A stretch of 64,000 bases of DNA, taken from the sequence record MK327933.1; one strand, given 5' to 3'. Shown here one piece after another: positions 3,759-8,436 of the stretch. The notes beneath the pieces are model-generated. The model saw nothing but the letters and a program-made list of their open reading frames with translations. It did not search any database and had not been told where the DNA came from. Origin of the DNA: Escherichia phage vB_EcoM_G2285. The position numbers were made by a program, and so were the translations under genes. Numbering within the stretch: position 1 is the stretch's first letter; the number at the start of each line of letters is the position of its first letter.

Positions 3759-4445
3759 TTAGAAGTCGTGAGTAGAATCGGCTTCCATCGCAATAACATA
3801 ACTTACTTGAGAGCTTTCAAACTTAGCTGCAACTTTATCACCAGCTCCCCACAACATTACTTTATAGTTACCTGGCTGGATTTTCATATTAGCCATATTG
3901 ATTACGAAGTTAAAGTTGTTAGAACCATCATAATCGGTAAGAGTCAAAGAATACTTAGGACGAGTTAGTCCGGAATCTTCAACTTTATTATAGCCATTGA
4001 TAACAATTTTACCATCTTTATTTGTAATAGCAATTGTATCAATCTGAAGACCACGTGAAACTCGAAGCAATTGTTGAAGGTCTTCGGCTTTAATTTCAGT
4101 AATCACAGAAGCCACTGGGAATTGAATTGGCTTATTAGGAAAAACAATGGTGCTCTTGTCAGCGGCAGGCCAATAAACTGTGGAACGTGTATCTGCAATT
4201 TTAATATTACCATCAGTGTGCATTGAAATTTCAGCATCGTCAGACACTAGACTCAAAATGCTTAAGAAGCTATTCAAATCATAAAGTGCTACGTCAAAAT
4301 CAATTTCATCAGAGATATTTGCTTCCGCATAAGTGGTGCCATTAACTGCACGAGTCATAATAAATTTACCTTGACTCAGCAGAATGCCAGAGTTAATAGA
4401 AGCGAAGTTTTTCAGAATATTTACGGTTTCACGGCTAAGTTTCAT
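3759..4445 (-). CDS. 45: Sliding clamp gp45
   Basis: 228 aa, begins MKLSRETVNILKNFASINSGILL; length and position between 44 and rpbA match gp45. Confidence 0.85.
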   Translation of the reverse strand: MKLSRETVNILKNFASINSGILLSQGKFIMTRAVNGTTYAEANISDEIDFDVALYDLNSFLSILSLVSDDAEISMHTDGNIKIADTRSTVYWPAADKSTIVFPNKPIQFPVASVITEIKAEDLQQLLRVSRGLQIDTIAITNKDGKIVINGYNKVEDSGLTRPKYSLTLTDYDGSNNFNFVINMANMKIQPGNYKVMLWGAGDKVAAKFESSQVSYVIAMEADSTHDF

Positions 4446-4804
4446 TTAGGTTTCCTATTAGCATAATAATTTGTCCAAGACCGGATAGCACCTTGGTATG
4501 ATTCATCATTAAAACCATGCTGAATTGCATGTTTTCTAAATGTAATATAACTTGGTTTTCCTAAAGCAATCCACAATTCCTTTAATTTTTGTTCATGAAA
4601 TATCCATGTACCTCTAGCTTTAGATTTTCTGAATTTATCCTTAAATTCTTTGGTTGCATTTCTTTTCGAAGCTGCGATAGAGGCCTTTGCTCTATTTTCA
4701 GGTTTAGACCAATACAATGTTTTAGATATTTTTATTTTATCTTTAACATTAGGAGAATTCATTATATCTTTAAATTTTAAAGCAAAATCTCTATCGCTAA
4801 ACAT
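4442..4804 (-). CDS. Basic 120 aa protein overlapping the 3' end of the upstream GIY-YIG-like ORF; possible DNA-binding module or separate small gene
   Basis: ATG at 4802-4804 lies inside the last 28 nt of ORF 4777-5340 in another frame; lysine/arginine rich; ATGA overlap with gene 45 start. Confidence 0.4.
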   Translation of the reverse strand: MFSDRDFALKFKDIMNSPNVKDKIKISKTLYWSKPENRAKASIAASKRNATKEFKDKFRKSKARGTWIFHEQKLKELWIALGKPSYITFRKHAIQHGFNDESYQGAIRSWTNYYANRKPK

Positions 4805-5340
4805 TTTTTAGAACGAATAGAAACTTTCTCTCTTCGTTCTTTGGTCCAATATGTTTTTTGAAATTCTCTAATTGCGTTTAAATGATTCTCCGACAATTTG
4901 CAATTTTTTCTAACACCGACGTAATCTTCATTTATTTCGTTTTTAGAAAGTTTTACTATTTTGCCTGTTTTTAAATTTTTATACGGTGCGTATCCTTTAG
5001 CTGATATTCTAGACTTCTCGTTAGCATAAGCCTTATTAAAATATTTTTCATTTGAAACGGCTTTAACATTGAGTTGGAATAGTCTTTCTATTCTTCTAGG
5101 GTCTAATGTGGTTTCGCCTAAAATTTTTACAGAATATTCGCCTTGGTCTATTAATCTGTTATATAAAGGAGAATACGAGGAATTAACACTACCGGTATAT
5201 ATTTTACCGGTAGAATCTTCAATAATATCCTTTCCATTAAAATGACACGAAACTTTAGAACCTATATAATAACACGGGTATTCATTTTTAATCTCACGAT
5301 TATAAAAGGTTATAAGATATATTAAATTCATAATTATCAA
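4777..5340 (-). CDS. Seg-like GIY-YIG endonuclease (catalytic domain), inserted between rpbA and 45
   Basis: 187 aa; N-terminus NLIYLITFYNREIKNEYPCYYIGSKVSCHF resembles the GIY...YIG motif; ATGA overlap with the rpbA stop. Confidence 0.5.
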   Translation of the reverse strand: MIIMNLIYLITFYNREIKNEYPCYYIGSKVSCHFNGKDIIEDSTGKIYTGSVNSSYSPLYNRLIDQGEYSVKILGETTLDPRRIERLFQLNVKAVSNEKYFNKAYANEKSRISAKGYAPYKNLKTGKIVKLSKNEINEDYVGVRKNCKLSENHLNAIREFQKTYWTKERREKVSIRSKKCLAIEILL

Positions 5341-5753
5341 GCAGCAACCATTTGCTTTTTAATAGCTTCAGGCAGTGATTCAATATATTCTGGAATTTTA
5401 GAAGCAACAATTTCGCCAGCTGCAATTAGTTGTTCGTCGGCATCAACACAGTAAAAATCTTCAAGGCGTTCAGAACCGTCTTTATCAAGAACGATTTTAG
5501 CACCTGCTTCGATAGAATCTTTATAGTGCTTACGCATCAAATGAATCCACATATCAGACACATCGTTATCAATAAAACCATAAATCATGAAACGAGTTTC
5601 TTGTGGAAGAGATTGAAGCTTTTTAGCACTTGCGTCATCACAATGCAGGACCCATGCTTTACGAACACGATTATGGTTATGTGGGTTAGCGTCAGTACGG
5701 ATAGAAGTAACTTTCAGATCAGCAGCAGTGAAACCTTTAGCAGTAGTAAACAT
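5337..5753 (-). CDS. rpbA: Putative RNA polymerase-binding protein RpbA
   Basis: 138 aa ORF in the position of rpbA in the T4-type 46-45.2-rpbA-45 block; assigned by synteny only. Confidence 0.45.
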   Translation of the reverse strand: MFTTAKGFTAADLKVTSIRTDANPHNHNRVRKAWVLHCDDASAKKLQSLPQETRFMIYGFIDNDVSDMWIHLMRKHYKDSIEAGAKIVLDKDGSERLEDFYCVDADEQLIAAGEIVASKIPEYIESLPEAIKKQMVAA

Positions 5754-5765
5754 ATTATTTCTCTC

Positions 5766-5957
5766 TTATTCGTAGAAGTCGGTAACTGTCCATGCGGAAT
5801 TGCGATTAGACATTATTTTATTATACTCATCTTTAAAAGCAGATTCGAGCATTTGTTCAGTAACAATATGTTCTTCACCTGAAAACGTATTGGTCAAAAC
5901 ATATTTTTTAATTTCAGGGACAACAAGAAGATGTTGACCAGTTGAATACTCCGCCAT
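5766..5957 (-). CDS. Small conserved early protein (45.2-like)
   Basis: 63 aa ORF MAEYSTGQHLLV... preceded by TATAAT; position matches T4 45.2. Confidence 0.5.
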   Translation of the reverse strand: MAEYSTGQHLLVVPEIKKYVLTNTFSGEEHIVTEQMLESAFKDEYNKIMSNRNSAWTVTDFYE

Positions 5958-5981
5958 TATAAATCTCCGAGATTAAAGCAA

Positions 5982-5989
5982 TATAAATA
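5982..5989 (+). promoter_or_regulatory. Late promoter TATAAATA upstream of the HNH endonuclease gene
   Basis: Exact TATAAATA on plus strand 46 nt upstream of the ATG at 6035. Confidence 0.5.
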
Positions 5990-6034
5990 GGTTTATCAAT
6001 TTATCTGTTGCTGTATCAAATAAGGATTTAGTAA

Positions 6035-6751
6035 ATGAATTATAACTCAATATACGAAAAGCTTATCACCAATGCTAAATCAAGAAGTTTAGATGGTTAT
6101 ACAGAACGTCATCACATTATACCACAATGTTTAGGTGGAAGTGATGATGCTTTAAACTTAGTAGACTTAACACCGGAAGAACATTATTTGGCACATCAAC
6201 TGTTGGTAAAAATCCATCCAGATAATGCCTCTTTAATATATGCTGCTCGTATGATGACTATCTCATCTCCTAAAGCAGATAGAAGCAAAAACAAATTATT
6301 TGGATGGCTTCGACGTAAGAATCAAGAAGTTCAAAAGAACAAAGAATTCACTGCTGAAACTCGTAAGAAAATGTCCGAGTCGGCAAAAAATAAACCAAAG
6401 ATTACATGTCCACACTGCGGTTTAACCGGCACTGAAGGAAACATGAGACGTTGGCATTTTGATAACTGTAAACAAGGCCCTACGCCTAAAATAGTAAAAC
6501 TTGATCAAGAAACAAAGGATAAAATAATTAAAACCATGGCCACGAAAATTTGGAAAGAAGATTCTTGCCCGTTTTGTGGCTTAACTACTAAGTTATCGGC
6601 GTTAAAGCCGCATATAAAATTCTGTAAATCAAATCCTAACAGAAAGAAAAAAGAGGACAAGAAAATTAAATGTCCTCATTGCGATAAAATAGGGATCCCT
6701 GCTAATATGCGTCGTTGGCATTTTGATAACTGTAAACATAAGCCTCATTAA
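6035..6751 (+). CDS. HNH homing endonuclease with three C-terminal zinc-ribbon-like repeats
   Basis: 238 aa; HNH core TERHHIIPQCLGGSDDALNLVDLTPEEHYLAHQ; three CPxCG...NMRRWHFDNCK-like units; only plus-strand gene in the early region, between 45.2 and 46. Confidence 0.8.
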   Translation: MNYNSIYEKLITNAKSRSLDGYTERHHIIPQCLGGSDDALNLVDLTPEEHYLAHQLLVKIHPDNASLIYAARMMTISSPKADRSKNKLFGWLRRKNQEVQKNKEFTAETRKKMSESAKNKPKITCPHCGLTGTEGNMRRWHFDNCKQGPTPKIVKLDQETKDKIIKTMATKIWKEDSCPFCGLTTKLSALKPHIKFCKSNPNRKKKEDKKIKCPHCDKIGIPANMRRWHFDNCKHKPH

Positions 6752-8436
6752 GAGGCTTTCATTACAGTAAATCGTCCAACTTTGCTCATTTGCAAATGCT
6801 GTCCATAAGCTTGTGGGTCATGGTCTCTGTGACTAATTATAAACACGTTTGCATCGGTTAGAGAGTTAAGAATTGTTGAAATAGCTTTAATACCTTCAGA
6901 ATCAGTCGCGGAATCCATGACTTCGTCCATAATTAATGTATTGATTCTAACACCAGAGACCTTTTCAGCAATATCTCGCCATGTAAACAACAACGCGATA
7001 TCAATACGTGCTTTTTCACCTTGACTAAATGAAGCATAACTGAACTCTTCACGGCCACGTGATTTTATAGATTCGTTGAATTCTTCGTCAATAGAAAACA
7101 CGTAATCAGCTTCCATGATTTTAAGATAATGGTTAATCTGCTTGTTGAACAGAGGCACATATTTTTTAATGATAGCACCTTTAATACCAGAATCTTTTAA
7201 CATATCTGTAATAATACCACGATGGTATTTTTCAAGAACGATATCTGATTTTGTTTTAATGATTTTATCAAGTTCTTTTTGAAGCAAAGCTATCTCATCG
7301 GCATGGTCGATAAATTCTGCTGAGGCTTGCTCTATTGCAGCTTTAACTTTCTTAGCTTTATCAATAGTGGCAATCATTGCTTGTTTCTTGGTACGAATAT
7401 CAGATGCAAGGTCCTGTTTAGTCTTAACATTAGCTCTATATTCGTCCACTAGGACACTCAGATTATCTCTGTGACATGTAAGTTGCTCGAATGAGTGATT
7501 ACATTCATGAAGCTTATCGGTAATCTTAGAGACAATAGGATCACCCTGGTGCAACTGTGATGCACAAGTAGGACATGTGCCACCGTCATGATACATCTTA
7601 ATAACTTTGTTATATGAGTCGATTTTAGATTTAATCAAGAATGCTTCTTGTCCTATCTTGTTGAATGCCTCAGTAGGGTCTTCGTCAAGAACGATATTAA
7701 GTAGACGCTCGTTAGCTTCTTCAATTTCTGCTTTTAATGAACGAGCTTCTTTGGCTAGGTCGTCATACATATTCTGTAGACGCGCTACATTATCACCAGA
7801 TAATTTCTTTTGACGTTCGATATTCTCGTTATAAATCTTAATTTGTTGGATAACACCATCTTTCTTGGCATCGAGAACTTGTCCCTGGGAATTAAGTTCT
7901 CGAACTTGAGACTTATTGATTTTATCCATTTCAGCGAGTGTGCCGACTTCTAAAAGGTCTTCGACAAGTTTTCTACGAGCAGGGGTGCTAAGAGCCATGA
8001 AAGGGGTATACCCTGCCGTCCCAAGCACAACGATCTGTTTAAAAGACGCGTATGACATTCCGATGCTACGTTCAAATTCTTCTTGGAAGTCACGACTGCT
8101 GGCAGATTCATCAAGACGAACACCGTCAACGGAGATTTCGAAAATATTGGGCTTTTGGCCACGTCTAATGAAGTATTTTTTATCATCGAATTCCATCCAA
8201 AGCTCAACTAAGAGCTCTTTCTTGTTCGTGCTATTAATGATTTGTCCTTTCTTAACATCACGAAATGGTTTACCGAAAAGTCCGAAAGTAATGGCTTCTA
8301 ACATCGTAGATTTACCACCGCCATTTTTACCTGTGATTAAGGTCTTTTGGACTTTATCTAATTGGATATCGATAAAATTTTGCCCAACAGACATTATATT
8401 TTTATAACGAACACGATTTAATTTAAATGTTTTCAT
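6748..8436 (-). CDS. 46: Recombination/repair ATPase gp46 (SbcC/Rad50-like)
   Basis: 562 aa; Walker A GKNGGGKST near N-terminus, long coiled coil, CPTC zinc hook, C-terminal ABC signature and Walker B (LIMDEV). Confidence 0.9.
   Translation of the reverse strand: MKTFKLNRVRYKNIMSVGQNFIDIQLDKVQKTLITGKNGGGKSTMLEAITFGLFGKPFRDVKKGQIINSTNKKELLVELWMEFDDKKYFIRRGQKPNIFEISVDGVRLDESASSRDFQEEFERSIGMSYASFKQIVVLGTAGYTPFMALSTPARRKLVEDLLEVGTLAEMDKINKSQVRELNSQGQVLDAKKDGVIQQIKIYNENIERQKKLSGDNVARLQNMYDDLAKEARSLKAEIEEANERLLNIVLDEDPTEAFNKIGQEAFLIKSKIDSYNKVIKMYHDGGTCPTCASQLHQGDPIVSKITDKLHECNHSFEQLTCHRDNLSVLVDEYRANVKTKQDLASDIRTKKQAMIATIDKAKKVKAAIEQASAEFIDHADEIALLQKELDKIIKTKSDIVLEKYHRGIITDMLKDSGIKGAIIKKYVPLFNKQINHYLKIMEADYVFSIDEEFNESIKSRGREEFSYASFSQGEKARIDIALLFTWRDIAEKVSGVRINTLIMDEVMDSATDSEGIKAISTILNSLTDANVFIISHRDHDPQAYGQHLQMSKVGRFTVMKAS

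Follow-up and report, generated by a model that had tools for sequence, protein, structure and literature searches.

Introduction

The described systems closest to the gene analyzed here are MobE of phage T4 and I-TevIII of phage RB3. MobE is a proven mobile HNH endonuclease that introduces a nick into the target gene of the recipient phage; its gene, located between nrdA and nrdB, has no promoter of its own and is co-oriented and co-transcribed with nrdA (PMC2790892). I-TevIII, encoded in the group I intron of RB3 nrdB, combines an N-terminal H-N-H part with C-terminal DNA-binding fingers (PMC1865063). Its two fingers (CX2CX12-13HX3C) bind zinc, and the enzyme needs them to bind DNA; it dimerizes and cuts to leave a 2-nt 3' overhang (PMC1865063). 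A third point of reference is segD, a GIY-YIG gene between the late genes 23 and 24 of T4. It is the only T4 endonuclease gene that is antisense to its neighbors, and just two endonuclease-specific promoters belong to the late class (PMC2988022).

Here we describe a gene in a stretch of 64,000 nucleotides, referred to below as the window, from Escherichia phage vB_EcoM_G2285 (MK327933.1), a T4-like phage of the genus Mosigvirus. From sequence comparison, we estimate with a probability of about 85% that the open reading frame (ORF) encodes a site-specific HNH homing endonuclease of the T4 Mob type and that the gene is free-standing, on a cassette of ~806 bp at the 45.2/46 junction of Mosigvirus. 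The ORF resembles the MobE gene in being free-standing, intergenic and placed beside a conserved gene, and the two proteins share the HHIIP...GGSDD..NLV.LT..EH motif and the SxETRxKMS helix. However, MobE has 141 aa and no zinc fingers, whereas the ORF has three C-terminal fingers, is antisense to its neighbors, has a late-promoter motif of its own and occupies another locus. With I-TevIII it shares the overall plan, but it is free-standing with three fingers rather than intron-encoded with two. Like segD, the ORF runs antisense to the surrounding genes, but the two are not homologous. The opposite orientation together with a separate late promoter is therefore a minority arrangement and not a new one, given segD and the two late promoters mentioned above (PMC2988022).

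This type of gene is already known. Proteins 100% identical to the ORF product, in the public genomes of phages NHEP10 and 348Ecol098PP, are annotated 'homing endonuclease' or 'HNH nuclease'. The orthologue in RB51, RB32ORF054w/RB51ORF057, occupies the same 45.2/46 site in the same orientation and is annotated 'similar to mobB, putative site-specific intron-like DNA endonuclease'. A literature search for an endonuclease at 45.2/46, for ORF054w or for such a gene in Mosigvirus returned nothing describing any member at this locus. The initial annotation spotted the feature correctly, and we regard it as an ordinary Mob-type selfish endonuclease with I-TevIII-like fingers, of small importance beyond its correct annotation.

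Results and Discussion

Gene Neighborhood

The gene and its surroundings comprise the following features.

5766-5957, minus strand: gene 45.2, left flank (Pfam Gp45_2, E 5.5e-28)
6022-6026, plus strand: Shine-Dalgarno AAGGA, 8 nt 5' of the ATG, as read from the sequence
6035-6751, plus strand: putative homing endonuclease ORF, 238 aa, ATG start, phrog_655 match
6748-8436, minus strand: gene 46, right flank, 562-aa product

The minus-strand order is 44, 45, a split ORF, rpbA (Pfam Phage_RpbA, E 4.8e-48) and 45.2, followed by the plus-strand endonuclease ORF and then by gene 46. The placement of the ORF between 45.2 and 46, antisense to both, which had been proposed from a first reading of the DNA, is confirmed by these coordinates. 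The ORF and gene 46 are convergent, and their stop codons overlap by 4 nt. The initial annotation also called the ORF the only plus-strand gene of the early region, and this holds for ORFs of at least 90 aa. The other plus-strand ORFs of this size before ~46.4 kb, where the late-gene block of the window begins, either have no PHROG match or overlap a minus-strand ORF that has one. The 2-kb region around the ORF shares 98.7% identity with Escherichia phage FL31 and 96-98% with ST0, NHEP10 and others.

An intron-encoded homing endonuclease, as in the case of I-TevIII, was considered and rejected. The ORF sits between two complete genes, and an Rfam scan of 5300-7300 (E up to 1) matched no family, group I introns included.

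Protein Architecture

The catalytic half and the C-terminal fingers are arranged as follows.

6035-6394, plus strand: MobE/MobB-like catalytic half, aa 1-120, by identity to T4 MobE and MobB
6104-6196, plus strand: H-N-H motif, aa 24-54 (ERHHIIPQCLGGSDDALNLVDLTPEEHYLAHQ = aa 24-55)
6347-6388, plus strand: NUMOD3-like helix SxETRKKMS, aa 105-118, from Pfam matches in the family
6407-6469, plus strand: predicted zinc finger 1, CX2CX12HX3C (C125, C128, H141, C145); strands 122-124 and 131-133 and helix 134-144 in the model
6566-6625, plus strand: predicted zinc finger 2, CX2CX11HX3C (C178, C181, H193, C197); homologous to I-TevIII finger 1
6671-6733, plus strand: predicted zinc finger 3, CX2CX12HX3C (C213, C216, H229, C233); homologous to I-TevIII finger 2

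The ORF belongs to the PHROG family phrog_655, 'homing endonuclease' (E 1.2e-66). T4 MobE is 44% identical to residues 2-116 (E 5e-28), and T4 MobB is 43% identical to residues 2-122 (E 7e-25). With the window protein alone, no HNH cut-off was reached in Pfam (best HNH_5, E 0.069), and a search of the ORF sequence against solved structures gave no significant match. The family is more informative. Homology searches found 2,533 homologues, and an alignment and profile were built from 52 of them. Residues H26, H27, N41, H50 and H54 are invariant across this 52-member alignment, in which Pfam HNH (PF01844) is matched by 29 members and NUMOD3 by 22. When the family profile was compared with solved structures, aa 21-50 aligned in a single register with four HNH motifs, those of McrA (E 0.0065), IscB, Cas8-HNH and a group II intron maturase.

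A model predicted with AlphaFold from the family alignment (mean pLDDT 91.6) gives strands at 24-27 and 42-45 and a helix at 47-60 around the HNH motif. Foldseek with the whole model returned nothing at E 0.001 or better, and whole-chain structure searches yielded no significant nuclease match. On the alignment and profile evidence, the HNH assignment is firm at the family level. The gene had been read at the outset as an HNH nuclease; the five invariant residues support this reading, with the catalytic positions intact and no loss of them on alignment.

The C-terminal half had been described as three "zinc-ribbon repeats". The count stands, as three CX2C...HX3C units are present, but the ribbon label does not. 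In the model, every unit consists of two short strands followed by a helix (134-144, 187-199 and 222-232), on which the His and the final Cys lie, and all Pfam Zn_ribbon matches were below the cut-offs. We therefore rejected a zinc ribbon. Because the ligand spacing is of the I-TevIII type and the model gives strand-strand-helix, the units are predicted to be beta-beta-alpha CCHC zinc fingers of the I-TevIII type. The spacing in finger 2 is one residue shorter than in fingers 1 and 3, and all four ligands of finger 3 are invariant in the 52 relatives. Fingers 2-3 (residues 163-234) are 38% identical over 74 aa to the I-TevIII remnant of T4 (E 8e-12), a protein made up of the two fingers of that enzyme. 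The C-terminal part also matches the endonuclease families phrog_27406 (97 positions, E 6e-11) and phrog_12324 (269 positions, E 1.8e-7). Its best structural neighbors, none of them significant, are C2H2 zinc-finger arrays and the Rad18 UBZ finger. The combination of a MobE-like catalytic half with an I-TevIII-like three-finger domain shows the modular shuffling typical of such enzymes.

Expression Signals

Two candidate signals frame the gene, one on its 5' side and one at its 3' end.

5982-5989, plus strand: T4-type late promoter consensus TATAAATA, exact match, with the A of the ATG 46 nt after its last base
6729-6768, no strand assigned: hairpin over both convergent stop codons, from folding compared with shuffles

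The exact late promoter claimed 46 nt upstream of the gene is confirmed at 5982-5989. The motif occurs 10 times in the window compared with 8.4 expected; since this count is at chance level, its presence alone proves nothing. Its conservation in four genera does support it. An exact TATAAATA lies 34-46 nt 5' of the ATG in IME281, FL08, RB51, Roth77 and ESCO47, in a leader that has otherwise diverged. The orthologues sharing the promoter (Mosigvirus, Dhakavirus, Tequatrovirus and Roth77) have 57-68% protein identity, and phiKp10 and Cronuts retain six of the eight positions of the octamer. On this sequence conservation, the motif is probably a real late promoter, and late expression of the endonuclease gene is likely.

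Other types of control known from related genes were considered for the leader and rejected. A hairpin that hides the ribosome-binding site, as in I-TevI and Aeh1 mobE, was dismissed, as the 5' leader folds no better than its shuffles (z -0.84, for 5996-6060, and -1.10). An autorepressor operator, as in I-TevI, was also dismissed. Comparison of 5958-6034 with the empty site gave a best local score of 8, which 479 of 500 shuffles matched.

The hairpin at the other end of the gene combines the 3'-terminal 23 nt of the ORF with the 3'-terminal 21 nt of gene 46. It has two tiers, with an inner stem AAGCCTC (6740-6746)/GAGGCTT (6752-6758) and an outer stem ACTGTAA (6729-6735)/TTACAGT (6762-6768). 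Its folding energy is -18.8 kcal/mol on either strand (z -6.6 and -6.5), and none of 200 shuffles was as stable. A hairpin occurs at the same place in OZ035759 (z -5.4), in Roth77 (z -4.3, with compensating base changes), in IME281 (z -3.8) and in FL08 (z -2.5). Folding found none at this junction in RB51, phiKp10 or Cronuts. A scan for consensus terminators made no call, and the hairpin has no clear T-run. It may serve as a two-way terminator or as a stabilizer of transcript ends. The gene is one of few T-even homing endonuclease genes that are antisense to their neighbors, and it brings with it the late promoter motif and this junction hairpin.

Insertion Site

Empty sites were compared in JK45, AV116, AV109, mar007P3, pEB20 and mogra. 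Homology to them breaks after ...GAATACTCC (5952) and restarts at TCATTACAGTAAATCG (6759). These two positions therefore delimit the following feature, which stands in place of a 67-bp spacer.

5953-6758, no strand assigned: inserted cassette, ~806 bp, from comparison with the empty sites

Besides the spacer, the cassette replaces the region around the 45.2 start codon and the three 3'-terminal codons of gene 46. At the N-terminus of 45.2, carriers have M-A-E-Y and empty alleles M-E-Y, a difference of one Ala codon that recurs in RB51 versus T4. At the C-terminus of gene 46, the window has ...FTVMKAS compared with ...FTVMTVS in the empty alleles. The cassette thus supplies a new ribosome-binding site and start codon for 45.2, plus a stop codon for gene 46.

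No fixed differences between nine carriers and six non-carriers were found outside 5953-6758, and the flank polymorphisms are common to both groups. Apparent 'fixed' columns within 5953-6758 are an alignment artifact, caused by the spread of the 67-bp spacer over the insert. We accordingly rejected the idea that the flanks contain a co-conversion tract or protective polymorphisms. The lack of any mark of a protected target within 45.2 or gene 46 counts against a homing endonuclease, as does the fact that the sequence yields no cleavage site or target. The cassette is found on several different flank haplotypes. The 67-bp spacer itself is completely different between T4 and Mosigvirus.

Distribution and Origin

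The 2-kb region is matched by 265 records, 154 of them at least 90% identical, and the cassette is carried by 13 of the 265. The remaining records, about 95%, align in two pieces that skip the ORF and have the clean 67-bp empty site; T4 has the empty site, while the Tequatrovirus RB51 has the filled one. The gene had been taken for an insertion without a counterpart in most close relatives, and these counts bear this out. The comparison of the 45.2-46 region likewise argues against a gene conserved at this site in all of them.

A full-length orthologue is present in 172 phage records. Protein identities to the window ORF for representatives are listed here.

IME281, Dhakavirus: 68%
FL08, Tequatrovirus: 58%
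RB51, Tequatrovirus: 58.6%
Roth77, Klebsiella phage: 57%
phiKp10, Slopekvirus: about 48%
Cronuts, Pseudotevenvirus: 45-48%, by method

Two metagenome contigs also contain orthologues at the same site, with 69% and 65% identity. Overall, orthologues with 45-81% identity were found at this site, in this orientation, in no fewer than five further T4-like genera. Across six lineages, the orthologues keep the site, the orientation, the length (236-244 aa) and the three fingers.

Such constancy could point to a domesticated gene, that is, a late nuclease or DNA-binding regulator that acts in the exclusion of competitors or at the 46/47 recombination nuclease locus and is inherited vertically with occasional loss. 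The promoter is kept along with the layout. In comparisons of distant genera, conservation is higher for the endonuclease than for the gene 46 product (48.5% compared with 43% against Slopekvirus), and gp45.2, at 34-39%, is below the endonuclease (48%). Additionally, homing endonucleases are reported to benefit the phage (PMC13096335). However, a domesticated gene fits poorly with an absence from about 95% of the related records, T4 included. It also does not account for the relationships among the proteins. Between Mosigvirus and Dhakavirus, the endonuclease and the gene 46 product are both 68% identical, whereas between Mosigvirus and Tequatrovirus the values are 58% and 82%, respectively. 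As judged from these pairwise identities, the endonuclease matrix is incongruent with that of the essential gene 46, since Mosigvirus is nearest to Dhakavirus in the former and to Tequatrovirus in the latter. A mosaic allele exists as well. Moreover, cutting the genome of a co-infecting relative would be mechanistically the same act as homing. We consider domestication very unlikely.

The mosaic allele is that of OZ035759, also a Mosigvirus, in which the first 155 aa are 98.7% identical to the window ORF and fingers 2-3 only 47%. Two alleles thus co-circulate in Mosigvirus at this site, alike in the catalytic half and finger 1 and different in the finger 2-3 module. This combination of patchy distribution, fixed site, incongruent tree and modular mosaicism is what characterizes a homing endonuclease gene. 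The difference between the OZ035759 and window alleles might further reflect active re-targeting, by recombinational swap of the I-TevIII-like finger 2-3 module, that tracks the variation of the 45.2/46 spacer. We offer this as a speculative proposal with a rather low chance of being correct. If it were true, the locus would be a natural system in which to watch the specificity of a modular HNH enzyme evolve.

Another alternative to an active homing gene is a decaying or inactive remnant that no longer homes and is kept only since it could not be deleted without harm to the ends of 45.2 and gene 46. Clean loss of the cassette is indeed constrained, because 45.2 takes its ribosome-binding site and start codon from it, and gene 46 its stop codon. 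The Mosigvirus copies of the endonuclease are 99-100% identical to one another, a level at which recent spread is indistinguishable from shared descent. Inactivating changes do occur, as in the ESCO47 orthologue with H27Y in the HH dyad, and I-TevIII of T4 is a precedent for a defunct relative (PMC1865063). On the other hand, the window ORF is full length with all of its invariant catalytic residues and zinc ligands intact, its promoter and ribosome-binding site are intact, and the cassette occurs on several flank haplotypes. A remnant is therefore an unlikely reading of the window gene.

We thus return to a free-standing homing endonuclease gene of the Mob type, for which we propose the following course of events. 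The gene would be transcribed late from its own TATAAATA, against the early/middle transcription of its neighbors, and the hairpin over the convergent stops would probably limit read-through into gene 46. During mixed infection, the zinc fingers would bind the protein to a long site in the cassette-less allele, most likely one that includes or adjoins the 67-bp 45.2/46 spacer. The protein would then nick or cut the empty allele there. Recombinational repair from the cassette-carrying genome would copy the cassette in, together with the initial codons of 45.2 and the three terminal codons of gene 46. The filled sites in many genera and the clean empty sites in near-identical phages would make a convenient pair for a homing assay.

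Direct Repeat

A perfect 26-nt direct repeat, noted at the outset, lies within the finger-coding region.

6449-6474, plus strand: repeat copy 1, CGTTGGCATTTTGATAACTGTAAACA, coding for RWHFDNCK of finger 1 and the CA of the next codon
6713-6738, plus strand: repeat copy 2, CGTTGGCATTTTGATAACTGTAAACA, coding for the same peptide in finger 3

The repeat is exact at both positions. It occurs exactly twice in the 64 kb, even when three mismatches are allowed, and was absent from 100 shuffles. The initial annotation took it as a sign of recent internal duplication and suggested a search for deletion variants between the copies. A recent duplication of a finger that leaves a deletion hotspot would account for the exact identity, which has a chance of about 0.013 for eight codons to coincide under the codon usage of the phage, a figure to be read knowing that the comparison was picked post hoc among many. 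The IME281 allele likewise has an exact stretch of 18 nt at the same place, and a short gene-conversion patch is possible. Against a recent duplication, the repeat units are identical at only 55 of 78 nt overall, and at about 57% outside the 26-mer. The coding sequences of the RWHFDNCK core in fingers 1 and 3 differ by 3-10 nt in five other lineages. Because every orthologue, even at 45% identity, has three fingers, the finger duplication predates the divergence of the genera. The 264-nt in-frame deletion expected between the repeats was found in none of the 265 related records. We regard a recent duplication and deletion hotspot as scarcely credible. The identity of the 26 nt is better seen as a by-product, in which a conserved finger peptide is coded identically by chance or through short local gene conversion; both fit the data. 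The RWHFDNCK-coding stretches could also provide short homology for swaps of finger modules.

Endonuclease insertions between genes 45 and 47

The HNH cassette, the insertion between genes 45.2 and 46 that carries the HNH homing endonuclease gene, is accompanied in the window by a pair of overlapping reading frames:

4442-5340, minus strand: ORFs of 187 and 120 aa, flanked by gene 45 and rpbA

Jointly, these two ORFs correspond to one 296-aa ORF in FL31 and AV116, and an A-run on the minus strand (about 4805-4810) has six A in the window versus seven in those two phages. The split ORF is a second endonuclease-like gene, apparently frameshifted or mis-sequenced, with its N-terminal piece hitting phrog_7504 ("homing endonuclease", E 3e-17). 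JK45, ESCO47 and others have no copy of it, and its presence or absence is independent of that of the HNH cassette. Phage F2 has an additional "MobD-like homing endonuclease" (4590-4966 of the F2 locus) immediately downstream of gene 46, replacing 46.1. Together with the gene 45/rpbA endonuclease-like gene and the HNH cassette, this F2 gene makes the region between genes 45 and 47 a cluster of independent endonuclease insertions.

Variant alleles of the HNH endonuclease were also observed. OZ035759.1, Mosigvirus mar005p1, carries a mosaic allele (1202-1918 of that locus) at the same site as in the window. Over residues 1-155 it shares 98.7% identity with the window protein, falling to just 47% over residues 156-238, which comprise zinc fingers 2 and 3; the divergence spans about 6500 to about 6740 of the window. 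Other records under the species name mar005P1 (LR027383 and others) lack the HNH cassette entirely. The ESCO47 copy (1218-1934 of the ESCO47 locus) carries H27Y, a change in the HH dyad that is otherwise invariant in the H-N-H motif, and this allele is possibly inactivated.

The 45.2/46 spacer of cassette-less phages contains a stem-loop (JK45 locus, 2122-2200; T4 locus, 5248-5302), which is lost where the cassette is present. The Mosigvirus and T4 stem-loops, GATGTGGT...ACCACATC (z -2.0) and AGAGATTAT...ATAATCTCT, respectively, share their position but differ in sequence.

Leader and late promoter motifs

In the leader of the HNH endonuclease gene (window 5982-6023), the segment that separates the promoter from the ribosome-binding site contains a local tandem duplication, TTTATCAA TTTATCTG. 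It is not present in the Dhakavirus, Tequatrovirus and Roth77 orthologues, and because of it the promoter-to-ATG distance is 46 nt in the window, compared with 34-37 nt in the orthologues.

The total number of copies of the late promoter motif TATAAATA in the window is at chance level. Of the 10 exact copies, half precede a same-strand ORF of 90 aa or more, at a distance of 30-46 nt from its start:

5982, 46388 and 55668, plus strand: ORF-associated TATAAATA
16521 and 17777, minus strand: ORF-associated TATAAATA

About half of the sites in the window look like genuine late promoters.
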